A stretch of 64,000 nt of DNA from Candidatus Cloacimonadota bacterium (lineage in GTDB: Bacteria > Cloacimonadota > Cloacimonadia > JGIOTU-2): positions 1,616-65,615 of the forward strand of contig JAGMCF010000151.1 of assembly GCA_023129415.1 (NCBI GenBank). Reading direction: 5' to 3'. The notes below the pieces were generated by a model. The model was not told the DNA's origin and made no database searches. It saw only the letters and a program-made list of their open reading frames with translations. Each line of letters begins with the position of its first letter. The first letter of the stretch is position 1. The position numbers were made by a program, and so were the translations under genes. Positions 38,395-56,632 of this stretch are shown here, piece after piece.

Positions 38395-38464
38395 CTCGCC
38401 CGGTTAGAAATTTTATCTGAATTATTATTTTCTTATATTTGCATTTAGCCAATTTCTAATAGGG

Positions 38465-39700: not shown

Positions 39701-39707
39701 CTCGCAC

Positions 39708-40196: not shown

Positions 40197-40213
40197 ACTG
40201 TATTTTTCTCATA

Positions 40214-40240
40214 CAAAAAATGCTCCGAACAATCGGAGCA
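40214..40240 (-). terminator. Intrinsic-terminator-like hairpin in the rimP leader (candidate attenuator)
   Basis: Minus strand reads gctccgattgttcggagc followed by attttttg. It ends about 18 nt upstream of the rimP ATG. A TTGACA lies at 40286-40291 (minus) upstream of it. Confidence 0.6.
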
Positions 40241-40316
40241 AAAACTCGCTCTGCTTTTAGTTAAATTTGCTGATTAATAATTTTTTGTCAAATATTATAG
40301 GATTTTTCAGGAAATA

Positions 40317-40473
40317 TAATTAGTGTCTGTCCGTAAATGTAGAACGAGGTTCCTAGCTCGTTTTCTTAAGGCACATTTAAAGCCTATTTACATTAACGAC
40401 CTTGGTCGGTCTCGGCGCCCAGACGGAAAGGTCGTTCTACAAACAATGATTTTACGGACAGACACTAATTAAT
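40317..40473 (+). mobile_element. MITE-like element, copy B (157 bp, perfect 21-bp TIRs)
   Basis: taattagtgtctgtccgtaaa (40317-40337) and tttacggacagacactaatta (40453-40473). Internal hairpins gaacgaggttcctagctcgtt and aacgaccttggtcggtctcggcgcccagacggaaaggtcgtt. No ORF. Confidence 0.75.
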
Positions 40474-40548
40474 ATGAACTATTAAGGTTGGGATTTAAAA
40501 TAATGAAAAACACAGTTATTGTAAATAATTGTAAAAAAATTCAATTTT

Positions 40549-42747
40549 TTATTTAACAAAAATTTTCCCAGTACCATTGGAAATTACTCTTCCAATTTTT
40601 GAAAATCCTTGAATTCCCTTTTTCTGAAATTTGTCCATTAATTCTTTACATTCATCTTCTGGAATAGAAACTAACAAACCACCAGAAGTTTGTGCATCGG
40701 ATAAAAGAACTTTCTGAACATAAGAAATTGATGAACTCCATTCCACAATTGGCTCAACAAATTTCAAATTGGATAAAGTCCCTCCGGGAATGATATTCCC
40801 AGTTGCAAATTCAGCTGCACCATTAAGGAGTTTTACATTATCTGCAAATATTTCAACATCCACATCACTTGCTTTTGTCATTTCAGATAAATGCCCTAAT
40901 AGACCAAAACCCGTAACATCTGTGCAAGCATGGACTGTAAAATCATTTAATATTTGAGATGTGTAATTATTCAAAGTTTCCATTGTCTCAACTAATTCTG
41001 ATTTTTGATTTTTGGAAAGTAATCCTCTCTTCATAGCAGTAGATAAAATGCCAGTTCCAATTGGTTTTGTAAGAAGAATCGCATCATTGGGAACCATACC
41101 AATATTTTTCCAAATTTTTTCTGGATGAACAAGACCAACAACAACCATGCCATATTTCGGTTCTGTATCTTCAATAGAATGTCCGCCAATGATAGTTATA
41201 CCAGCTTCTCTCGCTTTTTTCTGGGCACCTTGTAAAATTTCTTCCAATACACTTATTGGCAGACGATTGGTTGGGAATCCAACAATATTTAATCCAAAGA
41301 GTGGTTTTGCACCCATTGCATAAATGTCACTTAAAGCATTTGCAGTAGCTATCATTCCAAAATCAAAAGGGTTATCTACAATAGGGGTAAAGAAATCTAC
41401 AGTAACAACTATTGCAGTATTTTCATCAATTTTGTAAACAGCAGCATCATCAGCAGTATTTGTGCTTACCAGAATATTCTTATCATCTGGAATGGGCAGT
41501 TTCTGTAATATTGTTTCCAATATTTGGGGTTCAATCTTGCAAGCACATCCCATTCCATGAGTAAAATGAGTCAATTTGATTTCTTCTTTCATATCAATTA
41601 TAATATGCTCTTTCTTTGCTTGAAATTTTTGCACAGTTTTGATAATAATTTCCGCCGCTTGCTCAATTTCTTCTTCAGTTGTAAATTTACCTGTTGAAAA
41701 ACGAATAGTTCCCATTGCATAATCAATGGGCACATTCATTGCTTGCAAAACAGCAGAAACATCTATCCTGTCAGAATGACACGCAGCACCAGCAGAAGCT
41801 GCAACTCCACTCATTTCAGAAAGAATAGTGTTCGCTTCTACTTTATAAAATCCTAAACTTAAAGTATTAGGCAAACGCTTTTCTGGATGCCCATTCAAAT
41901 GAAAATTAAGATTTGATTCATTGAGTTTTTGATGAAGTAGGTCCCTCATCTTTTTCATATATTTACTATTTTTCTTAAGGTCCCTCCCTGCAATTTCACA
42001 GGCTTTTCCTAGACCGACAATACCCAGAACATTCTCAGTTCCAGCCCGTAGATTCTGCTCGTGATCTGCACCATGAATGAACTTTTGCAAAGTTATTCCT
42101 CTACGAATATAAAGAGCTCCAACCCCTTTCGGAGCATATATTTTATGACCTGCGATTGTCAGAAGATCAATCCCTAACTCATCCACATACACGGGAATTT
42201 TTCCGATGGATTGTGCTGTATCTGTATGAACAAAAATATCGTTTTGTTTTGAAATCTTTGCAATTTCTGAAATAGGCTGAATTGTTCCAACCTCATTATT
42301 GGCATGCATAATTGTAATCAAAATAGTTTGAGGAGTGATAGCTTTTTCAACATCTTTTGGGTTAACCAAACCATATTCATCTACAGGTAGATATGAAATA
42401 TTGAATCCCTGTGATTCTAAATATTCACAAACTTCCATAACAGAAGGATGCTCAATTGAAGAGGTTATAATATGATTTCCCCTATCTTTATGAGATAATG
42501 CAATCCCTTTAATAGCAAAATTATTTGATTCTGAGCCACCACTGGTAAAAATAATCTCATCAGGATAAGCATGTATCAAATCAGCAATTTGTTTGCGTGC
42601 ATTTTCAATAGCCTTTTTAGTTTGAATTCCATACCAGTGCATGCTGGAAGGGTTACCAAAATGATTATCTAAAAAAGGTCTCATAGCTTGTGCTACTTCA
42701 GGTGCAACGGGAGTTGTGGCATTATAATCTAAATAAATCGGTTTCAT
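40549..42747 (-). CDS. selD: Fusion protein: NifS-like cysteine desulfurase/selenocysteine lyase (N) + selenophosphate synthetase SelD (C)
   Basis: N-terminal half is a class V aminotransferase (LDYNATTP, HANNEVGTIQP, AGHKIYAPKGVGALY, SAGAACHS). From about residue 390 it is SelD (LTHFTHGMGCACKIEPQILETIL, GGHSIEDTEPKYG). The catalytic position is Cys, not Sec. No stop or frameshift between the halves. Confidence 0.85.
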   Translation of the reverse strand: MKPIYLDYNATTPVAPEVAQAMRPFLDNHFGNPSSMHWYGIQTKKAIENARKQIADLIHAYPDEIIFTSGGSESNNFAIKGIALSHKDRGNHIITSSIEHPSVMEVCEYLESQGFNISYLPVDEYGLVNPKDVEKAITPQTILITIMHANNEVGTIQPISEIAKISKQNDIFVHTDTAQSIGKIPVYVDELGIDLLTIAGHKIYAPKGVGALYIRRGITLQKFIHGADHEQNLRAGTENVLGIVGLGKACEIAGRDLKKNSKYMKKMRDLLHQKLNESNLNFHLNGHPEKRLPNTLSLGFYKVEANTILSEMSGVAASAGAACHSDRIDVSAVLQAMNVPIDYAMGTIRFSTGKFTTEEEIEQAAEIIIKTVQKFQAKKEHIIIDMKEEIKLTHFTHGMGCACKIEPQILETILQKLPIPDDKNILVSTNTADDAAVYKIDENTAIVVTVDFFTPIVDNPFDFGMIATANALSDIYAMGAKPLFGLNIVGFPTNRLPISVLEEILQGAQKKAREAGITIIGGHSIEDTEPKYGMVVVGLVHPEKIWKNIGMVPNDAILLTKPIGTGILSTAMKRGLLSKNQKSELVETMETLNNYTSQILNDFTVHACTDVTGFGLLGHLSEMTKASDVDVEIFADNVKLLNGAAEFATGNIIPGGTLSNLKFVEPIVEWSSSISYVQKVLLSDAQTSGGLLVSIPEDECKELMDKFQKKGIQGFSKIGRVISNGTGKIFVK

Positions 42748-42954
42748 GTTTTCTCCAAATTAAAAAAATTTAACACTTTCTGGCTTATGCACAATTCCTT
42801 TATATTTTCTTGACACCTTTTATAATTTAAAATGTGTGTGCAATAAATATTTAATAATAAATACAAAGCAAGTTTTTTATTATCACTTAAATTTATTAAA
42901 CTCAATTGTTTGTTATTCTGTGTCTTGCATTATCATTGGGGGAAATACTCTATA

Positions 42955-43140
42955 TTTACATAGCGCGGTAAACCGCAGAGAACGCAAATCCCGATAGATA
43001 CGGGATCCCGACTAAAGTCGGGAGAAGACGCAGAGTTCACTGAGTTATTTATTATCTTTGTGTCCTTTGCGTCCATTCTCCGTAGTAGTAAGACTGCTAC
43101 TGCGAAGGATGAACCTACTCAGCGAACTTTGCGGTTAATT
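42955..43140. repeat. GC-rich composite hairpin element
   Basis: gcggtaaaccgc, tcccgatagatacggga, tcccgactaaagtcggga, cgtagtagtaagactgctactgcg. Long-range arms cgcagagttcactgagt (43029-43045) and actcagcgaactttgcg (43108-43124). Confidence 0.8.
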
Positions 43141-43199
43141 TTTTTGCCAAAAAAACAAAGATTTCATTTGTAATACTATAAAAAAGGTTAGGATAAAAC

Positions 43200-43796
43200 A
43201 TGAAAATGATTGAATTGAAAAAAGAGGATTACAATAATGTAAAGCTTCATTATCGTTATATCAGTGATAAATACTATAAAGTAATTTATACACAAACCAA
43301 CAATGGTTGGAATATCCAATTTAAACTAACTCAATCTGAAAATAAAATTATAAAGGATTATGAAGAACCCTTAATTGAGGATTGGATGGAAGAAGAAAGT
43401 GAAAATGGTTGTCAAATATTCGGAATCGAAGATGATGGCAATATTGTTGCCTGGCTTACAATTGGAAAGGAAAGTTGGAGTGATAGATTAAGGATATACG
43501 AATTACTTGTTCATGAAGATCATAGAAAGAAAGGTTACGGAAAATTACTTGTCCAAAAAGCAAAAGAAATAGCTAAAGAAAAAAGATGCTATTGTGTAAT
43601 TTTAGAAACACAAACTAACAATTATAATGCGATTGAATTTTACAAAAAATATGGTTTTAAATTATTCGGATGTGACTTAAACTGTTATCAATATAATGAT
43701 ATTAAAAGAAATGAAGTAAGAATTGATATGGTTTGTTATTTAACTCAAGTTTCGCAGGTGGCAGACGGAACAGAGTTCCGTGTTAACCTGAAATGA
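43200..43796 (+). CDS. GNAT-family N-acetyltransferase
   Basis: LLVHEDHRKKGYGKLLVQKAKEIAKE (acetyl-CoA binding Q/R-x-x-G-x-G/A motif), NYNAIEFYKKYGF. The last ~18 codons (LTQVSQVADGTEFRVNLK) are encoded by the repeat element starting at 43741. Confidence 0.75.
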   Translation: MKMIELKKEDYNNVKLHYRYISDKYYKVIYTQTNNGWNIQFKLTQSENKIIKDYEEPLIEDWMEEESENGCQIFGIEDDGNIVAWLTIGKESWSDRLRIYELLVHEDHRKKGYGKLLVQKAKEIAKEKRCYCVILETQTNNYNAIEFYKKYGFKLFGCDLNCYQYNDIKRNEVRIDMVCYLTQVSQVADGTEFRVNLK

Positions 43797-43998
43797 GGTG
43801 GATTAAAATTGTAACTCGCTTCTCTGAAGCGTCTGTCAGCTGGTCTGGGCGCCTGTCTCCCCATATATCGGGAGCCAAGACGGGCCCGAGCCTGAAAGGA
43901 GCTCTGCTCCATATTATGAACCAGAGATTCATAATACAGACGGAACAGAGTTCCGTGTTACTGAGGGAATAGAGTTACCAAGTGCGAAACTTGAGTTA
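43741..43998. repeat. GC-rich mosaic element with 16-nt TIRs and an internal 24-nt direct repeat
   Basis: TIRs taactcaagtttcgca (43741-43756) and tgcgaaacttgagtta (43983-43998). cagacggaacagagttccgtgtta occurs at 43762-43785 and 43937-43960. The right 193 nt is homologous, in inverted orientation, to 50112-50323. Confidence 0.8.
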
Positions 43999-44404
43999 TT
44001 TAAAAAAATAAAAAGATACAAAATATAAAAAAAAAGAATGACAAAATATGAAACCTGAAAACAGTACCTGTATTGTATGGAATGAAAGGAACAGCATATT
44101 GGATATTGTTGTTTGCAAGATATTGAAAGAAAAGAGTTCTAAGGAAGGATTGGTAGCACTTCCGATATTCCATTTAGTTATGTCAATCTATGTTAGTTCA
44201 ATAATCCTTGATTACATATTTTAGGAAAGATAAACGAATAGGGTTGAAGAGAATATAATCTTCTTTTCGAATGGCATTATGTAATAGTATATAAAAATTG
44301 TAATCCTCTTCATTTCTTTTAAAAAAATTTGACAAATAAAATAACACTTCCTGCTTTTACCCTGCTAATTTGGATAAAACAAACAATAGATTTAGGATGT
44401 ATAT

Positions 44405-44620
44405 TATGAAGCGGAGATATCCCGTTCTCCGAAGGATGAAAAGGGTGTTATCTTGTCATGCCAAAGGCATCATGCCCGAGGCAAATCCCGACTTGTCGGG
44501 AGATCCTTCGGATAAATTATCTACCCTGTCTGGGCGCCTGTCTCCCGATATATTCACCCTTCGTAGTACTACGGAGAACGGGTCGGGAGCCAAGACTGAC
44601 CAAGATCGACGGGGTTAAAT
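44405..44620. repeat. GC-rich mosaic element sharing modules with 43741-43998 and 50112-50325
   Basis: catgccaaaggcatcatgcccgaggcaaatcccgacttgtcgggagatccttcgga matches the 50214-50270 module with 3 differences. gtctgggcgcctgtctccc...cgggagccaagac is shared with 43843-43881. Long-range arms cccgttctccgaagg and ccttcg..cggagaacggg. Confidence 0.8.
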
Positions 44621-44803
44621 TATTACACCCCCTAAACCGATAGTTGGTATGGGCTGATGCCTTTTTTAGTCAATTTGGTTAGATGGTAGAGATAAGTCAA
44701 AATCTAATTTTAATCGTCATTTGTATTAACAGCATGGTCAATGGGTTATTCCTGAAATTCAGGAATAAATGCTCATGACCAGTTTAATAATAAGGAGTTA
44801 ATA

Positions 44804-45094
44804 ATGAATATCTATGTAGGCAATTTGTCACGCGAGGTCACCGAAGAGGATTTGCGACAGGCTTTTGAGCCCTTCGGTCAGGTCGATTCCGTCACTGTTA
44901 TTAAAGACAAGTTCAGTGGCGAATCAAGAGGATTCGGATTTGTGGAGATGCCCACTAAAGCTGAAGCCCAGTCCGCGATCAATGGACTGAACGACAAGGA
45001 GTTGAAGGAACGAACGCTTAAAGTCAATGAGGCTCGTCCTCGCTCTGAAGACCGTCGAGGTGGAGGAAGACGAGGTGGGGGGAGGCGCTTCTAG
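44804..45094 (+). CDS. RRM-type glycine/arginine-rich RNA-binding protein
   Basis: NIYVGNL (RNP2), RGFGFVEM (RNP1), C-terminal RRGGGRRGGGRRF. AAGGAG RBS at 44792-44797. Visibly GC-richer than the neighbouring genes. Confidence 0.9.
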   Translation: MNIYVGNLSREVTEEDLRQAFEPFGQVDSVTVIKDKFSGESRGFGFVEMPTKAEAQSAINGLNDKELKERTLKVNEARPRSEDRRGGGRRGGGRRF

Positions 45095-45278
45095 TAAACG
45101 GCATTTCAGACCTACCTGCGGTAGGCAGACATAACAGAGTCATAGTAGAACTTCGCCTGACTTCGCCGTGGAGCTGATGGCAGGGCACTTGCTCTTTGGT
45201 TGAGTTTTGTGCCCTTTCAGAGCTTATTTTGAGATTAGCAGCAGCGCCCCCAAACCTGCCGCAGCTCACGCTTGACCG

Positions 45279-45407
45279 TTATTCTTCCAATTCCTCAAAC
45301 TTCTTTCTCCCCTTTTCAGTAATAATTCTAAAATCTTCTTTTCTAACTGTTATACCTTCTGTATCAAATTGAGTAAGCATCAAAAGGCATATTTTGCGAT
45401 TACCTTA
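45279..45407 (-). pseudogene. Duplicated 3' end of selB (42 codons plus stop), detached copy
   Basis: About 90 percent identical (12 mismatches in ~126 nt by my count) to 46098-46228. Translates without interruption as GNRKICLLMLTQFDTEGITVRKEDFRIITEKGRKKFEELEE*, versus selB GNRKICLLMITQFDSEGITVRKGDYRFITEKGRKKFEELED*. Confidence 0.85.
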
Positions 45408-45601
45408 TTGAAAAATTTGACAATCAATTTTATCAAATTTTATTTTGATTTCATAATAAGTTGAAGTATTGGAAAAGTTAATTTCAAAAGTATGGTGTTA
45501 GTTTTCGAATGTTGAATTACAAATCATAATGTATTATATAATAAAATATTTTGCAATAAGACACATTTAACAAGCAATAGTAGCATGTAATCATCATAAC
45601 T

Positions 45602-45883
45602 ATGCGTATAGAATTTGAATGGGATTCTGACAAAGGAAATAAGAATATCAAGAAACACAGTGTTTCTTTCAATGAAGCTGCAACGATATTTGGCGATCCT
45701 CTGTCTATGACTTTTTACGATCCTGACCATTCCATTGACGAAAACCGATACATCACTATCGGGTTATCATATCTGGGAAAACTGCTTATTGTTTCACATA
45801 CAGATCGGGTGGAGCGCATACGTATCATTGCAACGCACCAAGAGAGTAAATTTTATGAAGAACAAAAATTACACAAAAACTGA
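45602..45883 (+). CDS. brnT: BrnT-family toxin (DUF497)
   Basis: MRIEFEWDSDKGNKNIKKHSVSFNEAATIFGDP...RYITIG...LLIVSHTDR...IRII is the DUF497/BrnT pattern. Confidence 0.85.
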   Translation: MRIEFEWDSDKGNKNIKKHSVSFNEAATIFGDPLSMTFYDPDHSIDENRYITIGLSYLGKLLIVSHTDRVERIRIIATHQESKFYEEQKLHKN

Positions 45884-46094
45884 TAACGAGCTTCGGGCTG
45901 AGTATGATTTATCTCAGTTACATGGAGGTGCCAGGGGTAAATATGTCCAGCGTTTTAACGAAGGTACAAATTTAGTGCTGATAGCCCCAGATGTTGCAAA
46001 GGTTTTTCCAAGTGATAAGGCAGTGAATGAAGCATTACGGTTACTTATGAAAATCGCAAAGACACAAGTCAAACAGAGAGTTCACCTAGGGTGA
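45855..46094 (+). CDS. brnA: BrnA-type antitoxin
   Basis: ATG at 45855, within track ORF 45735-46094. 79 aa, EYDLSQLHGGARGKY pattern. Overlaps the brnT end by 29 nt. Confidence 0.7.
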   Translation: MKNKNYTKTDNELRAEYDLSQLHGGARGKYVQRFNEGTNLVLIAPDVAKVFPSDKAVNEALRLLMKIAKTQVKQRVHLG

Positions 46095-46101
46095 TTTTTC
46101 G

Positions 46102-48054
46102 TTAGTCTTCCAATTCCTCAAACTTCTTTCTCCCCTTTTCAGTAATAAATCTATAATCACCTTTTCTAACTGTAATACCTTCGCTATCAAATTGTGTAAT
46201 CATCAAAAGGCATATTTTACGATTCCCACCTACCAAATCACGGAACTCCGAAACTTTTATACCCTCTTTATGCTCTGAAAGATACTTCAGTAATACATTT
46301 CTGCACTTATTTACAACTAAAGAATAAATAAAATTTCCCTCAATATTATATATTTTACCTTGATTCGTTAATAAGTTAAGAATCTGTTTTAACTTATTCT
46401 CATCAATATCTTGTGCTTTTGCTTGTGGAATCAATTCTGAAATTAGCGGAGTTTTCATTCCAGAATTTTGAATATAATCCTCTACAAAATCCACTTGCTT
46501 TTTATTTTCTGAAGAAAGAATCACATTATGAGATTTCAAAGCCCAGGTATGATGAACTTTCTTTAATTTATTCGAATCTATCATTTCTTCTAAAATCAGT
46601 TTCATCATATTTTCAGTTGTTGAATCACGGTTGATTCCAAACAAACCCATCAATTCCTCAAAGTTTCTGCCCCGTTCATCAAAGGGATTTCTTTTATGAA
46701 AAGTTTCTAAATTTCGTATAACTTTCTGTTCCAGCTTCTCTTTCTCCTTTTTGAGCATCAAATATCCCTTTTCCTTTGAAGAAATAACAACAATATCTTC
46801 AGGTAAAGATTTGGAAACAACTTCCTGGATATTCTGTTTGGGAATATTTAGAATATCTCCAATTTCCTGGTAACTAACAGGGATTAATCTTTTTCGCACT
46901 TCTGCGGCAATCAATTCAGATACTCCTCCTTCAGTTACTTTACGAAGTTCACTTATAAGTTTTTTAGTTCTACGACGATGGTGGAGAGGATGCGCATCAA
47001 TTATTTCACCTCCACCAAGAGTAATATCACAAGAACTACTTCGAATAACAAATCTATCTCCATATTTTGCAATACAAGGTGAATCAAGATGAATTTGAAC
47101 GATTGCTGTTTTCCCTGGTTCGAGCAGGTTTTTGTCTATAAAATGAATCCGAGCTTGAGCTTGATATGTACCCAAAAGGAAAACCGCTTGAGTCCAGATT
47201 TTAAAATTCCTATTATGTTGAAAAAGTGTAAGTTTTGCATCTATCATTGTTGTGGCTTGCAAAATCCTATCAGAAACACTCATACCTCTCTTAAAATCAT
47301 CCTTGTTCAAACCGACAAGATTTAAAGAAGCTCTATCCCCAGCAGTTATCTCCTCAACCTCATTACCATGACGTTCCATACGACGAATTCGTAATTTTTT
47401 CTCTACTGGTAAAAGATATACTGAATCCTTTTTCTTCAAATGCCCACTAATAACTGAACCATTTACTATCGTTCCAAAACCCTTTACACTAAAAATTCTA
47501 TCAATAAACATTCTGAATAGTTTACCAGTGTGTCTTTGTTCAACTTTGGAACACATTTCTTGTAAAAACTCTTTCAATTCACCGATACCTTCTCCCGTTT
47601 TTGCAGAAATTTTTATGACTGGGAAATCTTGCAGAAATGTTCCTTTTGTAAAATCTGAGATTTCTTCTTCAGCTATCTGGAGAATTTCTTCTTCAACAAG
47701 ATCAATTTTAGTTAAAGCAACAAATCCTTTTTTTACTCCGAGAATCTCCATAATTTTAAGATGTTCAACTGTCTGTGGCATTACTCCACTATCTGCAGCA
47801 ATTACAAGCATAACAAAATCAATACTGCTTACCCCAGCAACCATTGTGTTTACGAAATCCTTATGACCGGGAACATCTATGATACCTATACTATTTCCAC
47901 TTGGCAAATCAATATGAGCAAATCCGAGATTTATTGTTATTCCGCGTAGTTTTTCTTCTTTGTGAGTGTCGCAATCTATATTTGTTAATGACTTTATTAA
48001 AGCAGTTTTGCCATGGTCAATATGACCGGCAGTTCCCATTATTAGGTGTTTCAT
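46102..48054 (-). CDS. selB: Selenocysteine-specific elongation factor SelB
   Basis: GTPase motifs [17 protein letters not shown]. Long C-terminal winged-helix extension (650 aa). Adjacent to selA and tRNA-Sec. Confidence 0.9.
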   Translation of the reverse strand: MKHLIMGTAGHIDHGKTALIKSLTNIDCDTHKEEKLRGITINLGFAHIDLPSGNSIGIIDVPGHKDFVNTMVAGVSSIDFVMLVIAADSGVMPQTVEHLKIMEILGVKKGFVALTKIDLVEEEILQIAEEEISDFTKGTFLQDFPVIKISAKTGEGIGELKEFLQEMCSKVEQRHTGKLFRMFIDRIFSVKGFGTIVNGSVISGHLKKKDSVYLLPVEKKLRIRRMERHGNEVEEITAGDRASLNLVGLNKDDFKRGMSVSDRILQATTMIDAKLTLFQHNRNFKIWTQAVFLLGTYQAQARIHFIDKNLLEPGKTAIVQIHLDSPCIAKYGDRFVIRSSSCDITLGGGEIIDAHPLHHRRRTKKLISELRKVTEGGVSELIAAEVRKRLIPVSYQEIGDILNIPKQNIQEVVSKSLPEDIVVISSKEKGYLMLKKEKEKLEQKVIRNLETFHKRNPFDERGRNFEELMGLFGINRDSTTENMMKLILEEMIDSNKLKKVHHTWALKSHNVILSSENKKQVDFVEDYIQNSGMKTPLISELIPQAKAQDIDENKLKQILNLLTNQGKIYNIEGNFIYSLVVNKCRNVLLKYLSEHKEGIKVSEFRDLVGGNRKICLLMITQFDSEGITVRKGDYRFITEKGRKKFEELED

Positions 48055-48073
48055 AGATTTCTTTCAACCGCGA

Positions 48074-48420
48074 ATGTACGCTAATTTACGCAAATATTTT
48101 TTCTTTGCCACGAATTTACCCTGTGAAATCCTTCAAAGAAGGAATCCCGATATATCGGGATTATTTCACAGGGCAAGCACGAACTGGCACGAACATTTAT
48201 GTATCAATGTAAAAGGCATTTTTGTATTTCTTGTGATACATAATCTATATCACACTTCGCTGGTTCAAGTATGTTACTTGAACCGTTTATTTTAATTCTC
48301 CGGTTCAGATTGCAAATCTGAACCAGCATATAGATTTTAATTTTTGACCTCATCCCTAACCCTTCTCCTATGAGGAGAAGGGAACTAATCTCCCGCGTTT
48401 TAGGAGAAGATTAGTGCAAG
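48074..48420. repeat. selA-selB intergenic region filled by at least 6 hairpin modules
   Basis: ccctgtgaaat[ccttcaaagaagg][aatcccgatatatcgggatt]atttcacaggg, ggttcaagtatgttacttgaacc, ggttcagattgcaaatctgaacc, cccttctcctatgaggagaaggg, ctaatctcc..ggagaagattag. Frame gccacgaatttaccc...gggcaagcacgaactggcacgaaca is shared with 50468-50573. Confidence 0.8.
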
Positions 48421-48421
48421 G

Positions 48422-49822
48422 TTAATTCCTAACCATTTTTCGTGTAATTTCGTGTATTTCGCGGGCAATAAAATGAATATCCTCTTCAAAAATTGTTAAA
48501 ACATCAAAATGCAGATTTCCTTCCCGAAGAATTCCAAGTATTGGTCTTTCAAGTTTCAATAGGTTTTTAAAAACAGATTCAGCAAATTTTTTATAATTTT
48601 TTGGTGAGGTGAGCATTACAGAATAACTATCAATTTTGAGACGAGGAAGTGTTCCACCACCGCTATGTGCAGTGCTTTCAACAATTCTGGCTTTTACACT
48701 ATATTTTTTCAATTCTTCCAATAATTTTTGAGCTAGACTATGAAGTTCAATTTTAGTTCTTTTTAACATCATAAAAATTGGGATCTTTGATCGCAGCTCT
48801 TCTTCATTTATGTAATATTTTAAAACAGTTGATAGAGCTGCAATTGTCATTTTACCCACACGAAGAGCTCTCATTAATGGCGTTTTTGCAATTTTATTGA
48901 TCAATTCCTTTTTGCCTGCAACAATTCCTGCTTGGGGTCCGCCAAGTAATTTGTCACAGCTAAAAGTAATTAAATCGGTTCCAGCTTTCAAACTAGATTG
49001 AACATCTGGCTCATCTTTTAGCGGTAAACCTTCTGGCTTTCTCAAAAGTCCTGAACCAATATCATAGATCAAAATCAGATTATACTTTTTCGCAAGTTTA
49101 GAAAGCTCCCCTATCTCAACCTCTTCTGTAAATCCCTCGATGTAATAATTTGATTTATGTGCTTTTAAGATGATTGTTGTATCATCAGTTATTGCCTTTT
49201 CATAATCAGAAAGTCGTGTCCGATTTGTGGTGCCAACCTCAACCATTTTGGCTCCGCTTGCTTTCATAATTTCTGGAATGCGGAAAGAACCGCCGATTTC
49301 TATCAATTCACCACGAGAAATAATAGCTTCTTTATTTTCAGCAAAGGTTTTCAAACAAAGCAATACTCCTGCAGCATTATTATTCACAACAACAGCATCT
49401 TCTGCTTTTGTTACAAATTTAATCAGTTCAGAAATATGGGTGTTCCTATGACCTCGTTTGCCAGTTTCTAAATCAAACTCCAGATTTGAATATTCAGTAA
49501 TAATAGGCTCTAATTCTTTTAAAACAGCTTTTCCAAGAGGAGCTCTTCCTAAATTTGTATGTAGAACAATTCCTGTGGCATTAACCACAGGTTTCAAAGA
49601 TTTTTCAGATACTATAGAAATGTATGATAGAACTTTTTGAATGATTTGGTCAGTATCCCAGGCTTTTTCGCCTTGTAAAACCTTTGCTCTAATCTGCTCT
49701 AAAATTTGTCTGATTGCATAAGTCACTAATTCTAGACCAAATTTCTCTTTCAGTTTCAAAATTTCAGGTTGATTTAATAGTTTATCAACTCCAGGGATTC
49801 TTTTCAATTCTTCTTTCTGCAT
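48422..49822 (-). CDS. selA: L-seryl-tRNA(Sec) selenium transferase
   Basis: RIPGVDKLL N-terminus, NATGIVLHTNLGRAPL, FSCDKLLGGPQAG (PLP lysine). Confidence 0.95.
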   Translation of the reverse strand: MQKEELKRIPGVDKLLNQPEILKLKEKFGLELVTYAIRQILEQIRAKVLQGEKAWDTDQIIQKVLSYISIVSEKSLKPVVNATGIVLHTNLGRAPLGKAVLKELEPIITEYSNLEFDLETGKRGHRNTHISELIKFVTKAEDAVVVNNNAAGVLLCLKTFAENKEAIISRGELIEIGGSFRIPEIMKASGAKMVEVGTTNRTRLSDYEKAITDDTTIILKAHKSNYYIEGFTEEVEIGELSKLAKKYNLILIYDIGSGLLRKPEGLPLKDEPDVQSSLKAGTDLITFSCDKLLGGPQAGIVAGKKELINKIAKTPLMRALRVGKMTIAALSTVLKYYINEEELRSKIPIFMMLKRTKIELHSLAQKLLEELKKYSVKARIVESTAHSGGGTLPRLKIDSYSVMLTSPKNYKKFAESVFKNLLKLERPILGILREGNLHFDVLTIFEEDIHFIAREIHEITRKMVRN

Positions 49823-49834
49823 ATTTCTATTCCT

Positions 49835-49963
49835 AAAAAAGCCACAGATTCACCCCGTTAGATAACCTTGCTCTATGCGATAACAAAATACATTGGCTGT
49901 AAAAAATTTTACCTCATTACATAAAACAATTAATGGACAAATATCTAACGGATTAATCTGTGT
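49835..49963 (-). promoter_or_regulatory. Long hairpin plus U-tract between tRNA-Sec and the selA start
   Basis: Arms gccacagattcaccccgttagat (49841-49863) and atatctaacggattaatctgtgt (49941-49963), with a ~77-nt AT-rich loop. On the minus strand the 3' arm is followed by tttttt, then AGGAA and the selA ATG 12 nt later. Confidence 0.5.
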
Positions 49964-49984
49964 TAAAACATTTTTATGAATTAG

Positions 49985-50076
49985 CAGAGAGGGCAGGAAT
50001 CGAACCTGCCACAGACGGTTTCATCCGCCCACTACTGGTTTTGAAGACCAGCCGAAACACCAGTTCCATCCTCTCT
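49985..50076 (-). tRNA. selC: tRNA-Sec (anticodon UCA)
   Basis: Minus strand: AGAGAGGATGGAACTGGTGTTTCGGCTGGTCTTCAAAACCAGTAGTGGGCGGATGAAACCGTCTGTGGCAGGTTCGATTCCTGCCCTCTCTG. Anticodon loop CUUCAAA; 6-bp anticodon stem; D stem (U)GGAAC/GUUUC(G) with 4-nt loop; long variable arm GGCGG-AUGAAA-CCGUC; T arm GCAGG-UUCGAUU-CCUGC. No encoded CCA. Ends uncertain by 1-2 nt. Confidence 0.85.
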
Positions 50077-50111
50077 TTTTCTTCTCTATAAACTAATTAT
50101 TGAATTATTAC

Positions 50112-50325
50112 TTAACTCAAGTTTCGCACTTGATAACTCTATTCCCTCTGTAACACGGATCCCCGCGTCCGCGGGGACTGTTCCGTTTGTATTATGAATC
50201 TCTGGTTCATAATCCGAAGGATCTCCCGACAAGTCGGGATCTGTCTCGGGCATGATGCCTTCGGCATGATATGGAGCAGAGCTCCTTCTGGCAGACGCTT
50301 CAGAGAAGCGTGTTACAATTTTTAA
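50112..50325. repeat. GC-rich mosaic element, inverted paralogue of 43806-43998
   Basis: Shared backbone: aaaattgtaacNcgcttctctgaagcgtctg / aaggagctctgctccatat / aaccagagattcataataca / ccgtgttacNgagggaatagagttaNcaagtgcgaaacttgagtta. Extra modules at 50214-50270 and 50160-50177. The 87-aa track ORF here is rejected. Confidence 0.8.
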
Positions 50326-50467
50326 TAGTCTTTCATCAATAATTGCCAATGTAAATATTCAATATAAACAAAGAAATTTTGAAGTATATTTTTGTCAAAC
50401 TTATTATATTTATTGTATAAGTAGTTTTTATCCAAAGTTTTCAGTTATTACATTTTCATCTGAAAAT

Positions 50468-50640
50468 CCTTTTTAGCCACGAATTTACCCCGTTAGATAG
50501 CACCCCATTAGAATAGGAAGTATCTAACTAGGAAGAATATCTAACGGGGCAAGCACGAACTGACACGAACAAAATCTTATTCATAAAATTACACTCTCAT
50601 TCCCAAGCCCTCCCCAATTGAATTGGGGATTGGGAATGCT
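50468..50640. repeat. GC-rich hairpin elements upstream of the tRNA-Sec region
   Basis: gccacgaatttacc-ccgttagata...tatctaacgg-ggcaagcacgaactgacacgaaca (50468-50573), and the nested attcccaagccctccccaattgaattggggattgggaat (50591-50629). Confidence 0.8.
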
Positions 50641-50651
50641 TAATGCCATTT

Positions 50652-52361
50652 TCATGATCCTTTCAGGCTCGGCGCCCAGACGGGTGTGTCCCGATTTGTT
50701 TTCGGGACAAGAACAACATAAGTTGGCAGTCCAAGCACTCCAAAATAATCAAGAATTTCTTTCGTTGGAGATTCGTTTAGATTTTCTGCTTTATATTTCA
50801 CCCAGACATAGTTTTCAAGTTTTTCAACAACTTCATCATCCTTAAAAGTCGTAGCATCCATTACCAAACAGTTTTTACACCATGTAGCCCAGAAATCAAT
50901 CATTACAGGTTTTCCTTCTTTTTTTGCTTTTTCAAGTCCTTGAGAAAAAGAATATATCCATGGAAGAGTTGATGTTTCTTCTGCGACTTTAATTTGCTCT
51001 ACAGACTTTAATCTGCTGTGAAATATCTTTACTCCTGTATAACCATAATAAATTGCTATAACAAAAATAATAACACCAAAAATATATTTAATCCAGTCCA
51101 TCCAATTTCCTGGTTTAGGAAGGAATGAAAGACCAGCACCAGCAAATGGCCAGGGGATTGCCATTCCTGCTCCAAGTAAAAATGGTAGCAATAGTCCTGC
51201 TGAATTTCCTTTGGCATAAAGCGTTGTGGAATACAGAATGACAGAAATTAGGACAGGGGCGACACATGCTCCTGCAAGAACAGCAGCAATAACACCCAAT
51301 ACAAAAACGGTTATAAATTTTCCTCTACTTTTTCCTTGTATATTACCACTTCTAAATTTTGAGAAATCAATTGGAATGATATCAAACATAGCCAGTGCAA
51401 GAAGCACAAAGATTACCGCAATAATAATATTAAACCAAGGAGAAGCATTAATGGCACCAAATTTTGAGCCCGTTAAAACCACGATAACCCCAAGCGCTCC
51501 ATAGGCTAAAGTCATACCAAGTCCATAGGTCCCGCCAATTAAAAATCCCCTACCTTTTGATTCTGATTGGGTGCCAGCCCCAAGCACAGCGATTGTAATA
51601 GGTATCATTGGAAGAACACAGGGAGTAAGATTAAGTGCTATCCCTCCAATCAAAATCAGTAGAACAACTAACCAAATACTTTTCCCGGTAAATGTATTAG
51701 AATTAAAATCATTTGAACTTTCCGCCTGATCTAAAAAGGCGATAAATTCATTACTTTTTTGATATCCTCCGGTGACACCTGCAATAACAAAATCATCTAA
51801 TAATTTTTTAATTTCATTAAACTCATAGTCTGAAGTAATATGCTTTGTGGAAATTATTTCCTTTAGAGAAGCAATACTATCTTCTTTGTTAATACTGCCA
51901 ATGGTAACAGGTAATACCAATTCAACCTCTTCAGGAAAAAGGCACAGACCAGCATCATCACAAAATTGATAGCCAGCCACAACTTTTATTTCGTAAAAGC
52001 CATGCTTAACCTTTTTACTAACAGTAAAATCTCTTATTAAGGTAACCTTATGATGATAAGTTATTACTCCATCTTTATCTTTTTCTCCTACTGGATAAAC
52101 AGTGGACTTAAATGAAATTCCATCTATTTTATCAACTTCAATAAAAAAATAATCCTTTTCCAGAAGTTGATGATGTCCTGGAGGAATTAAAAAATTAACA
52201 CTAATTTGTCCTTTTTGTCCTATTTTGATTGTTTCAGGTTCAATTTTTCCTGAAACAACTTGTTCTTCTGCAGAAATCTTCACAACAGAAAATATAAAAA
52301 GAATTGCGATGAGTATAATATAGTTTCTTTTTTGTGTCATCGTGCCCATTTTCTTCATCAT
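50652..52361 (-). CDS. DsbD-like thiol:disulfide interchange protein (CcdA-type membrane core plus C-terminal thioredoxin domain)
   Basis: Signal peptide, LNLTPCVLPMIPITI (DsbD/CcdA transmembrane Cys motif), C-terminal FWATWCKNC thioredoxin motif. The last ~17 codons (VPKTNRDTPVWAPSLKGS) lie in a repeat module. Confidence 0.8.
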   Translation of the reverse strand: MMKKMGTMTQKRNYIILIAILFIFSVVKISAEEQVVSGKIEPETIKIGQKGQISVNFLIPPGHHQLLEKDYFFIEVDKIDGISFKSTVYPVGEKDKDGVITYHHKVTLIRDFTVSKKVKHGFYEIKVVAGYQFCDDAGLCLFPEEVELVLPVTIGSINKEDSIASLKEIISTKHITSDYEFNEIKKLLDDFVIAGVTGGYQKSNEFIAFLDQAESSNDFNSNTFTGKSIWLVVLLILIGGIALNLTPCVLPMIPITIAVLGAGTQSESKGRGFLIGGTYGLGMTLAYGALGVIVVLTGSKFGAINASPWFNIIIAVIFVLLALAMFDIIPIDFSKFRSGNIQGKSRGKFITVFVLGVIAAVLAGACVAPVLISVILYSTTLYAKGNSAGLLLPFLLGAGMAIPWPFAGAGLSFLPKPGNWMDWIKYIFGVIIFVIAIYYGYTGVKIFHSRLKSVEQIKVAEETSTLPWIYSFSQGLEKAKKEGKPVMIDFWATWCKNCLVMDATTFKDDEVVEKLENYVWVKYKAENLNESPTKEILDYFGVLGLPTYVVLVPKTNRDTPVWAPSLKGS

Positions 52362-52411
52362 TTTTTAATTAAAAAATATGGGGTAATGAAACTGATATTC
52401 CTTTTTGGAAG

Positions 52412-52445
52412 TCAACAAAAAGGCGGAATATTTCTATTCCGCCCC
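52412..52445 (-). terminator. Rho-independent terminator of the YVTN-repeat gene
   Basis: Minus strand reads ggcggaatagaaatattccgcc followed by tttttgttg. Confidence 0.8.
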
Positions 52446-52712
52446 TTGTTACCCTTGCGAAGGTTTAGAACCTTCGCAAGGTTCTTTGTTTCCAATCTTA
52501 ATTATCTTATCAAAATTTATTATACGACCTGTCCTTCGTAGTCTTGACGAAGGAGGAAGCACCACTTCGTCCTGATGATCCCCAATTCCTGAGCTCGTCA
52601 GGAACGGGCTTAATCGGGGAGGGACTTCGTAGTGTAAACTTTTCTGAACTCCATAGTTTTAACGAAGGAGTTAGCGAAGGAGAATTTATCCTCCGAAGCC
52701 TTAGCGAAGGAG
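52446..52712 (-). repeat. Conserved 3'UTR backbone with 4 extra hairpin modules (paralogue of 56633-56782)
   Basis: 59 nt (52469-52527) are identical to 56671-56729. Extra modules at about 52528-52557, 52573-52621 and 52644-52671. A 12-bp direct repeat ttagcgaaggag (52671-52682 and 52701-52712) flanks an 18-nt spacer. Confidence 0.85.
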
Positions 52713-55286
52713 GATCATTTTCTTGATTTGAGACTTAAAGTTCGTGGTTTCTATCTGATAGAAATAGATTCCGGACGATAGCTTTTTGCCACTCTCATCT
52801 TGTCCATTCCAGGCTACAGAATGTTTGCCAACGGTTTCTCTACTATGAACCAACTTCTTTACTAATTGTCCTCGTAGATTATAGATATTAAGGATAATTT
52901 TCCCGGGTTTTTGCAATTGGTAGGAAATGATTGTTTCAGATCTTAACGGGTTGGGATAGTTTTGTCCAAGTTTCGCTACAGGAGGCTGACCACTGTATGG
53001 CTCTTCTACACTAACAACGAAACTGTCTGTGATTACCGAAATGTTGCTAGAATATGGATTAGCAATGTAAACACTGTTTTGAAACTCGTTCCATATTCCA
53101 GCATCTGGTCCTATGCCCACAGGAATGGTAGCAACAACCTCATTAGTTCCTCCATCAATAATGGTGACATCGTTACTCCACCAGTTACCACAATAGACCT
53201 TGTTGTTAATAGAGTTCCAGAGCAAGAAATCTGGCATAGCTCCAACTGAAATAGTAGTAATCACCTCGTCCGTCTCACCATTGATAACAGTGATGTCATC
53301 ACTAAAATCGTTTGCACAGTATATTTTATTATCTATAGAGTTCCAGACCAGGTCCCATGGCATGTCACCTGCAGGAACAGTAGTAATAACTATATCACTT
53401 GCACCATCAATTATAGTGACATCGTTACTTAACTGGTTAGCACAGTAAACCTTATCGTTGGTAGAGTTCCAGCAAAGAGCTTGAGGCCCTGTCCCCGCTG
53501 GGATAGTAGCGATAACCGCATTTGTCTGACCGTCAATAACAGTGAGATTATCAGTAAATATATTCGCATGATACACCTTATTGTCGGTCTGATTCCAACA
53601 CAAGACACCCCATGATTCATCAGGCAAAGGCACGGAAGCAATAATTGCGTTACTCACTCCGTCAATGATATCTACCGCATATCCTTGACAACCACAGTAA
53701 ACCTTATTATTGATCGAATTCCAGCAAAAACCTTGGGGTCCCCATGTTACTGGGATTGTGGTGATAATGTTATTAGTTTGTCCATCAATGATGGTTACAT
53801 TGTCACCCCAGTAATTTGAGCAGTATATTTTGTTGTTAATGGAGTTCCAGATAAGAGCCCAAGGGGTCTCTCCTACTGGGATATTAGTAATAACCTGATT
53901 AGATTCTCCATCAATCACAGTAACGCTATTGCTCATCTGATTTGCTGAATAGACCTTGTTGTTGGTGGAGTTCCAAGTAAGTGCGCGAGGTTCATCCCCT
54001 ACCTGGATGGTGGAGACCAACCCGTTTGTCTCACCATTGATAATTGCTACCTTGGCACCATTGTGATCCACACAGTAAATTTCATTTTCTATGAGGTTCC
54101 AAGCCATATCCTGAATATTGGTACCAATTGAAAGTGTAGTGATGACTTCATCTGTCTCTCCATCAATGATGGTGACACTCTGACCTGTATAGCCGTTTGC
54201 ACCACAGTAAACTTTATTGTTAACCTGATTGCAACACATATCACGTGAATAGGAACATACAAGTGGAATAGTAGTAAGTACGGTATTTGTCTCTCCATCA
54301 ATGATAGTGATACTGGGCGATGACTGATTGGACGAATACACCTTGTTGCTCACAGGATTCCAGATGATCCAGAGCGGCTTATCTCCTACAGAAATAGTAG
54401 TAATCACTGTATTTGTCTCTCCATCTATAATAGTAATATTATCACTTCCACAGTTTGCACAGTAGATCTTATTGTTAGTTTCATTCCAGCAAAGGCGACT
54501 GGGGTTAGTGCCAGCTGGAATATTAGTGATGACCTGATTCGTTATTCCATCAATGACCGTCACAGTTCCATTTTCCCAGTTAGCACAATAGACATTATTG
54601 TTAGTTGAGTTCCAGACAATACCGTAAGGATTGCCACCGACTGCAATCTCCGTAATAATTGTATCCGTTTCACCATCAATCACGGTTACAGTGCCGCTAT
54701 AGAAATTAGCTGCATAGACCTTATTCTCGGTCTGATTCAGAGTTAGCTCGTAGGGCTGATCTCCCACAGGTAAAGTAGTAATAATTGTATCTGCCACACC
54801 GTCAATGATAACCACATTAGCACTGTAGTACATATCACTTGAGCAATAGATCTTGTTATTGATAGGGTTCCATATTATACTCCAGCAAACTCCATTAAAT
54901 GGAATTAGTTTGGTCCTTTGATGAGTGGCTCCACCAAAGACAATAACGCCTTCTTGAGAATCGTAATAGCCACCTCCACCAACATAGATCTTATTGTTGG
55001 CATTACAAGTAACACTTCTAGGACCATACATACCGCCCAGACTATCTGGCAAAGTAATGGTTGTTTCAAGCCATTGTCTTGGTGTATATCCATCACGTAT
55101 TCTATCCTTACTCTCGAATACCTCAAACTCGTTAGTAAATGCTGACATCCCTTGCTCGAGCTTAATCTTAACACCTGGTTCCAGCAATTTGCCGGAATAT
55201 TCCCGAGGCTTTTTCACCTCGTTAGCCGAAAGCCCAAAGCCCACAAAAAGTAGGATGGACATAGTTATTAGCATTGCTTTTTTCAT
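52701..55286 (-). CDS. YVTN-family beta-propeller repeat protein with T9SS-type C-terminal sorting domain
   Basis: Start at MKKAMLITMSILLFVGFG (AAGGAG RBS). About 16 repeats of VTVIDG-TN-VITTIPVG--P--L-WN--NNKVYCAN. C-terminus NYPNPL...IYNLRGQLV...GIYFYQIET. The track start at 55397 is rejected. Confidence 0.8.
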   Translation of the reverse strand: MKKAMLITMSILLFVGFGLSANEVKKPREYSGKLLEPGVKIKLEQGMSAFTNEFEVFESKDRIRDGYTPRQWLETTITLPDSLGGMYGPRSVTCNANNKIYVGGGGYYDSQEGVIVFGGATHQRTKLIPFNGVCWSIIWNPINNKIYCSSDMYYSANVVIIDGVADTIITTLPVGDQPYELTLNQTENKVYAANFYSGTVTVIDGETDTIITEIAVGGNPYGIVWNSTNNNVYCANWENGTVTVIDGITNQVITNIPAGTNPSRLCWNETNNKIYCANCGSDNITIIDGETNTVITTISVGDKPLWIIWNPVSNKVYSSNQSSPSITIIDGETNTVLTTIPLVCSYSRDMCCNQVNNKVYCGANGYTGQSVTIIDGETDEVITTLSIGTNIQDMAWNLIENEIYCVDHNGAKVAIINGETNGLVSTIQVGDEPRALTWNSTNNKVYSANQMSNSVTVIDGESNQVITNIPVGETPWALIWNSINNKIYCSNYWGDNVTIIDGQTNNIITTIPVTWGPQGFCWNSINNKVYCGCQGYAVDIIDGVSNAIIASVPLPDESWGVLCWNQTDNKVYHANIFTDNLTVIDGQTNAVIATIPAGTGPQALCWNSTNDKVYCANQLSNDVTIIDGASDIVITTVPAGDMPWDLVWNSIDNKIYCANDFSDDITVINGETDEVITTISVGAMPDFLLWNSINNKVYCGNWWSNDVTIIDGGTNEVVATIPVGIGPDAGIWNEFQNSVYIANPYSSNISVITDSFVVSVEEPYSGQPPVAKLGQNYPNPLRSETIISYQLQKPGKIILNIYNLRGQLVKKLVHSRETVGKHSVAWNGQDESGKKLSSGIYFYQIETTNFKSQIKKMILLR

Positions 55287-55453
55287 CTTAACTCCTTTAT
55301 TCCGCCAGTTAACTGCGGAATTTTTTCTCTTTTTTCGATTAACATAATAATGAGCACTTCTCAATAGAAGTATCTCTCCTATTTTAGACATTAACATTCC
55401 GACATTTTCCCCAATAAAAATAAGTGTCTAAAAACAAAATCAGATACACATTT

Positions 55454-56597: not shown

Positions 56598-56632
56598 ATA
56601 AAAACGAAAGGCGGAATATTGCTATTCCGCCC
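56598..56632 (-). terminator. Rho-independent terminator of the FG-GAP gene
   Basis: Minus strand reads ggcggaatagcaatattccgcc followed by tttcgttttt. Near-identical to the 52412-52445 terminator. Confidence 0.8.

Follow-up and report, generated by a model that had tools for sequence, protein, structure and literature searches.

Nested hairpin modules in two miniature transposable elements with ISPepr1-type ends beside the selenocysteine genes of a Cloacimonadota bacterium

We analysed a 64,000-nt stretch of contig JAGMCF010000151.1 from a Candidatus Cloacimonadota bacterium (hereafter, the window; positions are those within it), focusing on two related repeat elements, A at 43.8 kb and B at 50.1 kb, that lie on either side of selB, selA and the selenocysteine tRNA (tRNA-Sec) gene, and on a nearby aggregate of hairpins, cluster C (44405-44620, plus strand). 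The window has a GC content of 32% and carries a core chromosomal set of genes (nusA, infB, truB, ispD and ispF) along with a type IX secretion substrate, a nifS-selD fusion, selB, selA and the tRNA-Sec gene (49984-50077, minus strand), the last being a neighbour only that belongs to no element. The closest named relatives of the SelA protein are from Candidatus Cloacimonetes/Cloacimonadota metagenome-assembled genomes (MAGs), at no more than 87% identity. A second metagenome contig (L001, ENA ERZ23498859) spans 38422-52713 with 99.85% identity and no indels, and its genes and elements are arranged as in the window.

Searching the element regions against the window with blastn-short, A and the reverse complement of B shared four collinear blocks of 31, 19, 36 and 47 nt with 96–100% identity: block 1 (43805-43835 = 50322-50292; 97%, E = 9e-10), block 2 (43896-43914 = 50287-50269; 100%, E = 6e-5), block 3 (43913-43948 = 50213-50178; 97%, E = 1e-12) and block 4 (43952-43998 = 50159-50113; 96%, E = 7e-17). 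The longest unbroken homology was 47 nt. A sequence-only reading of this DNA had taken A and B for paralogues that share four blocks and are separated by discrete modules, and both points were borne out: MAFFT agreed with the blastn-short matches (E from 6e-5 to 7e-17 within the window), and pairwise and multiple alignments showed whole-module changes rather than diffuse substitutions. The module private to A among the window copies (M1, 56 nt, plus strand) lies at 43840-43895, exactly where it had been placed. The one private to B (M2, minus strand), given as 50214-50270, resolves into 55 nt at 50214-50268 plus an AT that is found on both sides, and sits between the block-2 and block-3 hairpins. 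For the third difference, an 18-nt GC hairpin (N1, TCCCCGCGTCCGCGGGGA, 50160-50177) is indeed nested in the loop of the ACGGAAC/GTTCCGT hairpin in B, yet it is a replacement and no pure insertion, exchanging 18 nt for the 3 nt of the apex and costing two stem pairs. That hairpin indels are the only differences proved too simple, as B is without the whole far arm that A retains at 43744-43804.

The same reading had left the two elements as an unclassified mosaic; both are copies of a MITE, a miniature transposable element with inverted repeats. A extends further left than described, to 43744, where a second terminal repeat lies, and is a complete, non-autonomous MITE of 252 nt (43744-43995, plus strand). 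Its 13-nt terminal repeats are a perfect inverted match (CTCAAGTTTCGCA at 43744-43756, plus strand; TGCGAAACTTGAG as read on the plus strand at 43983-43995, minus strand), and identical 8-bp target duplications (TTATTTAA) can be read directly from the sequence at 43736-43743 and 43996-44003. Each arm carries a hairpin, H1 (CAGACGGAACAGAGTTCCGTGTTA; 43762-43785 and 43937-43960, both plus strand and 100% identical), in a short form with no nested insert. A 68-nt segment is missing from A, an internal deletion in the MITE family. B (50116 to about 50326, plus strand) is a truncated, one-ended copy with the far arm deleted and the junction at 50322-50326. Its sole terminal inverted repeat (50116-50128, plus strand) lies 38 nt from the tRNA-Sec gene on the upstream side, next to the retained copy of its target duplication (TTACTTAA, 50108-50115). 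The MITEs measure 200–450 nt, the sole open reading frames (ORFs) through them are 61–87-aa read-throughs with no family match, and no ORF matching a transposase was found in or near A or B in the window.

At their ends A and B carry CTCAAGTTTCGCAC, the terminal inverted repeat of an insertion sequence (IS) that is widespread and belongs to the IS4 family, ISPepr1 subgroup type. A 19-mer at the end of block 4, which includes the right terminal repeat of A, was scanned against one genome per species (185,579 species) and matched 88 genome loci in several phyla (Bacteroidales, Flavobacteriaceae, Erysipelotrichaceae, Cloacimonadota and others). Many matches lay 30–50 nt from contig ends, and this clustering is the signature of a multi-copy mobile element. 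At one locus (L030) the 19-mer is the right end, and an inverted copy the left end (CTCAAGTTTCGCAC / GTGCGAAACTTGAG), of a 1572-bp IS (4956-6527) that is flanked by a 7-bp duplication (TTATCTA); the DDE transposase encoded in it has 477 aa and matches NCBIfam NF049925 'IS4 family transposase' with E = 1.6e-116. The terminal repeat marks a whole IS clade, because at seven more loci, in other organisms, it adjoins transposases that are only 35–57% identical. Members of the ISPepr1 subgroup have ends of the form YT-AA-YTT---A, 7–8-bp direct repeats, a length of 1500–1600 bp and a preference for AT-rich targets (De Palmenaer, Siguier and Mahillon 2008; PMC2266710). All four features are matched here by the CTCAAGTTTCGCA ends, the 7–8-bp duplications, the AT-rich targets and the full-length relative of 1.5–1.6 kb, and it is because ends, duplications, size and targets all agree that we assign A as a 252-nt MITE and B as a one-ended copy. 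A group II intron 5' end (GTGCG) was considered for the end of block 4 and rejected: AT-rich DNA with no structure follows, and the motif itself is accounted for as the IS terminal repeat.

Comparison with relatives, in line with a check of filled and empty sites proposed earlier, identified empty counterparts of both insertion sites: relatives at 85–89% DNA identity have no element at the A site or at the B site. In the locus with the 88% identical SelA (L101), the tRNA-Sec gene is preceded by ...ATTAAGTAATAATTC, with no element. The site there reads ...CTATTAAGTAATAATTC..., as against ...GACTATTAA / AAATTGTAAC...B...CTTGAG / TTAAGTAATAATTC in the window, with GAATTATTACTTAATAGAC standing where B retains its duplication; from this empty site we therefore place the insertion of B in TTAAGTAA (TTACTTAA on the plus strand), with an 8-bp duplication. 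Subsequently, a deletion between two TTAAT/ATTAA microhomologies removed the far arm of B together with half of one copy of the duplication. At the other site, GNAT orthologues are 183 aa long and end in YLKN or HLQN, as against 198 aa in the window. Their genes (L107 and L106) run ...TTATTTGAAAAATTGA, a single uninterrupted site with no element. In the window, the GNAT reading frame continues into A, where 43744-43796 supplies 17 additional codons and the stop, and in silico removal of A and one duplication copy gives a protein ending in ...VCYLKK, also of 183 aa. A thus replaced the last two GNAT codons with 17 of its own, which explains the 15-residue extension of this protein; spurious ORF calls of 60–90 aa are likewise accounted for.

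Sister copies of A and B were found in the Cloacimonadota MAG NIOZ-UU1 and its source metagenome. Eight were aligned, seven of them distinct (L094 repeats L051), so that the comparison covers ten copy sequences, nine of them distinct (A, B and the eight sisters; MAFFT). A metagenome scan with the invariant 22-mer of block 3 found only seven loci, all in JACKQG01, the single assembly from which the NIOZ-UU1 MAG derives. In total, the dispersed copies are two in the window and at least seven distinct ones in the MAG or its source metagenome. Within the shared blocks the sisters are 94–97% identical to B, and L038, L051, L059, L074 and L091 match it at 94–96% over 108–119 nt. Two are complete, with target duplications of their own: L059 (292 nt; TTACTTAA) and L092 (450 nt; TTATTTA). 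L091 is a short copy with the right end deleted and the target duplication TTATTTAA. Two further loci, L005 and L076 (duplication TTAATTA), have the same ends and different interiors, and these ends therefore enclose at least three kinds of interior (the A/B, L005 and L076 types). L059 (2766-2773 and 3066-3073) and B (50108-50115) lie at non-orthologous loci and share both the 8-bp target TTACTTAA and a 12-nt flank (ATTATTACTTAA), which hints at an extended target preference of the MITE family. A double nested-hairpin unit of about 110 nt was also observed in the window (26960-27140), in L005 (1780-1900) and in L076 (2137-2206). In the Cloacimonadota MAG it recurs within MITEs whose IS4-type ends are those of A and B. 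The unit has two outer stems (GCGAAAAC..CTTTTCGC and GCTGAAA..TTTCAGC) that each enclose a CCCGA-type hairpin, and its inner hairpins show compensatory differences, with one additional nesting level in L005.

Presence or absence of the modules varies discretely across these copies. M1 is composed of a 23-nt unit (CTGGTCTGGGCGCC/CGAGCCTGA; CTGGTCTGGGCGCCCGAGCCTGA) and a 30-nt hairpin (TGTCTCCCCATATATCGGGAGCCAAGACGG), which sits in the middle of the unit's GGGCGCCC core with a GCC repeat on its flanks. The 23-nt unit occurs alone at the same site in L074 and L092, nothing is found there in L038, L051, L059 and L091, and the inner hairpin was detected only in A among the ten copy sequences. M2 is found in B alone: A lacks it, as do the seven sister copies that span its site. 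The site of the right-arm H1 of A holds the 18-nt hairpin in B and in all eight sisters. In all eight sisters the left H1 carries N1, and the two H1 loops hold or lack it independently: L059 has it in both, L092 in the left one but not the right one, and A in neither. Only L091 has a 25-nt module in its block-1 hairpin loop. The backbone without modules is the common state (L038, L051 and L059).

Two repeat pairs of the window that are unrelated to A and B show the same kind of module difference. The copies of MITE family E2 (33778-33960, plus strand; 40317-40471, minus strand) form an inverted pair around the nusA-infB-DHH operon and are 96–98% identical apart from a 25-nt hairpin module, TCATGCCAAAGGCAGATCCCTCGGA, which copy 1 has and copy 2 lacks. 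Their terminal inverted repeats are TAATTAGTGTCTGTCCGTAAA (TAATTAGTGTCTGTYCGTAAA), and a GTCTGGGCGCCGAGAC palindrome lies in a hairpin loop. The copies of repeat E3 (52419-52527 and 56607-56730, both plus strand) are a direct pair, 98–100% identical except for one loop: copy 1 has the 12-bp hairpin CTTGCGAAGGTT-tag-AACCTTCGCAAG with the simple loop GGTTTAG, and in copy 2 this loop is replaced by a nested hairpin (TCCCCAATTAAATTGGGGA; TCCCCAATTAAATTGGGGATCA).

Module sequences also occur outside the MITEs. Cluster C, for which terminal repeats were looked for and none found, was said to combine both private modules. This holds for the B module, of which a copy lies at 44456-44513 (95% identity over 58 nt), and only in part for the A module: the M1 core and inner hairpin are found at 44528-44553 and 44583-44596, and the 3' half (GGGCCCGAGCCTGA) is missing. 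A 29-nt hairpin (44554-44582) sits within the loop of the inner M1 hairpin in C, giving three nesting levels. M2 and the inner M1 hairpin each have a hairpin of the form CCCGA-N2-9-TCGGG as their core. Hairpins of this form usually lie within the loop of a larger stem and number 11 in the window (0.02 expected), seven of them intergenic and four in annotated ORFs, two of these no more than 125 nt from the ORF 3' end. The motif GTCTGGGCGCC occurs seven times (0 expected). Of the GTCTGGGCGCC..GCCTGAAAGG units, one (50658-50681, minus strand) encodes the last codons of DsbD, and another (60004-60030, plus strand) lies in the loop of an AACCGTT/AACGGTT hairpin that is followed by T8 on the minus strand. 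Many intergenic modules recur at 92–100% identity in non-orthologous Cloacimonadota loci. Scans of viral contigs with the MITE end and the M1 unit gave no matches. A 17-mer of M2 matched 16 high-GC phage contigs; the flanks do not match, and these were set aside as chance or coding matches. A side observation concerns two unrelated proteins with repeat-encoded C-termini, DsbD (50652-50700) and ORF 11106-11957 (11106-11130): both ends are made of a GTCCCGA..TCGGGAC hairpin plus the GTCTGGGCGCC..GCCTGAAAGG unit, and a TGA inside the unit is the stop of ORF 11106-11957.

Taken together, A and B are very probably two independent insertions of one MITE family that were secondarily decorated by small hairpin modules. 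In a first layer, the MITE retains only the ISPepr1-type terminal repeats, which a transposase acting in trans would recognise, with insertion into AT-rich TTAnTTA(A) targets and duplication of 7–8 bp; the anatomy of the elements supports such transposase-mediated insertion well. The transposase that mobilised it in this genome was presumably of the ISPepr1 type. A landed in the last GNAT codons and is intact, and B landed 38 nt upstream of the tRNA-Sec gene and then lost one end through the microhomology deletion. In a second layer, GC-rich hairpin repeats of several families, 18–57 nt long, would have been copied into apical loops or into junctions between hairpins, leaving the host stems nearly intact, with nesting up to three deep as the result. 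These families include the CCCGA-loop-TCGGG hairpins and the GTCTGGGCGCC unit.

The boundaries of the small hairpins vary. There is no flanking repeat at the M1 unit or at the L091 module, a repeat of 2 nt at M2 and of 3 nt at the inner M1 hairpin, and a replacement of 3–7 host nt at N1 and E3. We lean slightly towards template switching or repair at hairpin apices over a site-specific enzyme, because these boundaries are imprecise and because both donor-like modules lie within 6 kb, in cluster C (in the 64 kb examined). All of about nine module events fall in apical loops or between hairpins and none in stems, with about 57% of backbone positions in predicted helices.

Several points weigh against this account. 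No cognate transposase was found in the 64-kb window or in the Cloacimonadota loci that were fetched, and a profile search with seven transposases gave 689 matches, among the best 120 of which none is named Cloacimonadota and most are without a name; current mobility of A and B in this genome is thus putative. No segregation of filled and empty sites was seen within the population, L001 being without indels. The direction of module change relies on parsimony over the ten copy sequences (nine distinct), and the flanking 2–3-nt repeats suit slippage deletion as well as insertion. The preference for loops may be taken as a rough inference from about nine events and predicted local hairpins, and in the minimum-energy fold of the whole element two of the sites pair differently through alternative long-range pairings, so that the argument relies on the local hairpins. 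No enzyme candidate for module movement was identified.

One alternative is that the module differences are losses, a module-rich ancestral MITE having shed hairpins by replication slippage between short direct repeats. Palindromes are prone to deletion in bacteria, slippage deletions use repeats such as the AT..AT around M2 and the GCC..GCC around the inner M1 hairpin, and internal deletions clearly did occur among the copies, costing B its far arm, L091 its right end and A a 68-nt segment. N1 occupies nine of ten left H1 sites, and its absence from A could be one such loss; the short H1, however, is a perfect 7-bp stem with an AGA loop as in the paralogous block-1 hairpin, a state that deletion is unlikely to recreate. 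Likewise, three modules (M2, the one in L091 and the inner hairpin of M1) each occur in just one of the ten copy sequences, and the module-less state is common to two organisms. The same modules also occur in cluster C, at gene 3' ends and in other MITE families, and because they are found in such unrelated hosts, they were copied into new places at least sometimes. Loss as the general explanation is in our judgement improbable, although hairpin-promoted deletion may equally have removed modules from some copies.

A candidate mover of the modules is a dedicated single-strand tyrosine transposase, either a transposase associated with repetitive extragenic palindromes (REPs), known as RAYT, or an IS200/IS605-like one, with the small hairpins being REP-type elements. 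These are short GC-rich palindromes, strongly over-represented and mainly intergenic or at gene 3' ends, and the CCCGA hairpins agree with REPs in their high copy number and extragenic or 3'-of-gene location. Single-strand transposition predicts insertions without target duplication, as in the M1 unit and the L091 module, and hairpin loops would offer single-stranded targets. The variable boundaries (repeats of 0, 2 or 3 nt, or 3–7 nt of the apex replaced) are unlike the product of a site-specific enzyme, and the 64-kb window showed no Y1 transposase. Two REP super-families are defined by an unpaired GTAG or CGTC tag at one end of a 20–40-nt palindrome (PMC3733652); the flanks of the 11 CCCGA-loop-TCGGG hairpins have no conserved tag of either kind, and membership of these super-families was rejected on that ground. 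A hairpin-specific transposase of the IS200/IS605 or RAYT kind is a possible mover of the small hairpins, although we consider it unlikely. More broadly, the nested modules could record an active and undescribed movement of 18–57-nt palindromes in Cloacimonadota, directed specifically into hairpin apices or junctions of other repeats, of terminators and of gene 3' ends with no fixed target duplication, a proposal that we make tentatively and consider rather unlikely. If it is true, the MITE copies would present the states before and after module movement in these Russian-doll hairpins and so reveal its rules. An enzyme-driven process would represent a new class of hairpin-targeting mobile micro-element, and a repair-driven one a distinct mutational process of palindrome-rich genomes.

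We also considered A and B as a structured non-coding RNA gene or a cis-regulatory RNA (a stabiliser in a 3' untranslated region, a terminator or a tRNA-Sec leader), with the modules as expansion hairpins. The predicted folds are very stable (-107.6 kcal/mol and z = -7.7 for A, z = -4.5 for B), as any set of palindromes would be. Insertions preserve the existing stems, and related hairpins occur at gene 3' ends and in a terminator-like stem. B lies between conserved upstream sequence and the tRNA-Sec gene, with which it is probably co-transcribed. The contexts of the copies, however, are unrelated, the copies lie in either orientation with respect to the genes next to them, and the terminal repeats shared with a transposase-bearing IS, the target duplications and the empty orthologous sites show arrival by transposition. 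The stem differences between H1 and block 1 are differences between paralogous palindromes, with no covariation among orthologues. No Rfam match was obtained for the elements even at E up to 5 (42750-45650 and 49800-50700), and at gathering thresholds the whole window yielded only the tRNA-Sec gene. A promoter and terminator scan of 43100-50700 was only modestly above the shuffled expectation. An RNA function as the origin of these elements is very unlikely.

The orientation of A and B as an inverted pair bracketing selB, selA, the tRNA-Sec gene and a small accessory islet was described correctly, and the islet region has clearly undergone remodelling, as a relative has a compact selA-selB-selD-nifS operon. 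A structural meaning for this bracket did not withstand the comparison, given the own duplication of A, the reconstructed target of B and the independently empty sites in relatives. The terminal repeats of both elements abut the 6-kb sel segment while the interiors point away, and because they face it the segment lies outside both elements; its extremes are not outer element ends and no duplication surrounds it as a whole, as would be expected of a composite transposon. No exchange has passed through A, because its 8-bp duplications match on both sides and recombination or inversion would have parted them, and the insertions are independent because the targets differ (TTATTTAA for A, TTACTTAA for B). 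That the segment is a composite transposon or an invertible or recombining cassette is therefore extremely improbable, as the required end of B is also lost, the homology offers only 47 unbroken nt, the inversion that had been suggested finds no counterpart in L001 (same arrangement) or in L101 (same tRNA-Sec/selA/selB order and orientation without B), and the unrelated E2 pair brackets nusA-infB likewise, such brackets arising by chance in a repeat-rich genome. The position of A and B around the sel genes is thus incidental, which removes the tempting but wrong reading of the sel cluster as part of a mobile or invertible cassette.

Compared with known systems, A and B resemble IS-derived MITEs in being short, non-coding and multi-copy, with empty sites in relatives. 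They differ from the ISPepr1 subgroup in an interior that is unrelated to the IS interior and consists of GC-rich hairpins although the genome has only 32% GC, and a full-length partner has so far not been seen in Cloacimonadota. Enterobacteria have bacterial interspersed mosaic elements (BIMEs), in which REP palindromes are clustered together with other motifs, with the neisserial intergenic mosaic elements (NIMEs) as a counterpart (PMC3184786). The likeness lies in mosaics of short GC-rich palindromes, variably combined and mainly intergenic or downstream of genes, and cluster C is BIME-like. The palindromes here, in contrast, are nested in each other's loops and in a MITE rather than placed side by side, have no GTAG or CGTC tags, and have no known RAYT.

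Small dispersed repeats of cyanobacteria were reportedly described in a 2008 study as tens of nt long, present in many contexts that include the inside of other repeats, and spread by an unknown mechanism; their insertions are said to have been recognisable from filled and empty paralogues, as here. Phylum and sequences differ, and the modules of the window are mostly self-complementary, located at hairpin apices and sometimes replace a few host bases. The enterobacterial repetitive intergenic consensus (ERIC, also called intergenic repeat unit, IRU) and the pneumococcal BOX elements are dispersed imperfect palindromes, the former with internal insertions at fixed sites and the latter with variable modules of the form A-B(n)-C. 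Copies of both differ by discrete insertions or module number, as do A and B. To our knowledge, neither has IS-type terminal repeats with 7–8-bp duplications, nor modules that are shared with other repeat families. Rickettsia palindromic elements and the GC clusters of fungal mitochondria are GC-rich palindromes that spread in AT-rich genomes and are tolerated in or at coding regions, similar to the repeat-encoded C-termini of GNAT, DsbD and ORF 11106-11957. Their sequences are unrelated to those of the window, where the elements are mainly at the extreme 3' ends of genes and not in frame inside them. The nesting of hairpins inside loops is the sole unusual aspect; otherwise this is ordinary selfish DNA, with MITEs of a known kind.

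The findings document an ISPepr1-type MITE family in an uncultivated phylum and provide a clean set of filled and empty paralogues for modules of 18–57 nt, with a host backbone that is 94–100% conserved and boundaries readable to the base. The spread of REP-like and other very small repeats is still poorly understood. Such repeats also break metagenome assemblies, as the many matches at contig ends indicate, and this matters for MAG quality in Cloacimonadota.

Further features of the sel region were recorded. The islet (43200-46100) is a plus-strand segment between selB and nifS-selD in a region that is otherwise on the minus strand, and contains the GNAT gene, MITE A, cluster C, an RRM-domain protein gene and brnTA. 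In a relative with 71% SelA identity (L102) nothing lies between selB and selD. A relic of the last 41 selB codons at 45279-45404 (minus strand) shares 91% DNA identity with 46102-46227 (minus strand) and lies 823 nt downstream of the functional end. Between the relic and the functional selB end are brnT (45602-45883) and brnA (about 45855-46094), both on the plus strand, encoding a BrnT/BrnA toxin-antitoxin pair; it looks as if a toxin-antitoxin cassette had integrated into the selB 3' end and brought a replacement end with it. The nifS-selD fusion (40549-42747, minus strand) is one 732-aa ORF with an N-terminal NifS-like class-V aminotransferase and a C-terminal SelD (AIRS/AIRS_C), while in L102 selA-selB is immediately followed by selD (304 aa) and nifS (378 aa) as two genes, their order being the reverse of that in the fusion. 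The selA-selB spacer (region 48090-48340) is 367 nt long in the window versus 112 nt in L101. The excess of about 255 nt consists of hairpin modules in series, one of which, ATCCCGATATATCGGGAT, lies nested in a CTGTGAAAT/ATTTCACAG stem.

Elsewhere in the window, a 9-nt tandem repeat (CAGTTCAAC, 7–9 units) occupies the intergenic region 12506-12586 and is also found on a Cloacimonadota metagenome contig (L096, about 2300-2945). A DUF433/DUF5615 pair at 26250-26852 (minus strand), a putative toxin-antitoxin module, adjoins a GC-rich repeat cluster, and its DUF5615 ORF looks N-terminally short (matching profile positions 35–107). The 898-aa product of ORF 52701-55397 is a beta-propeller protein that carries a C-terminal sorting domain for type IX secretion, and at least 12 diverged 126-nt (42-aa) tandem repeats lie within the ORF at 53107-54820.

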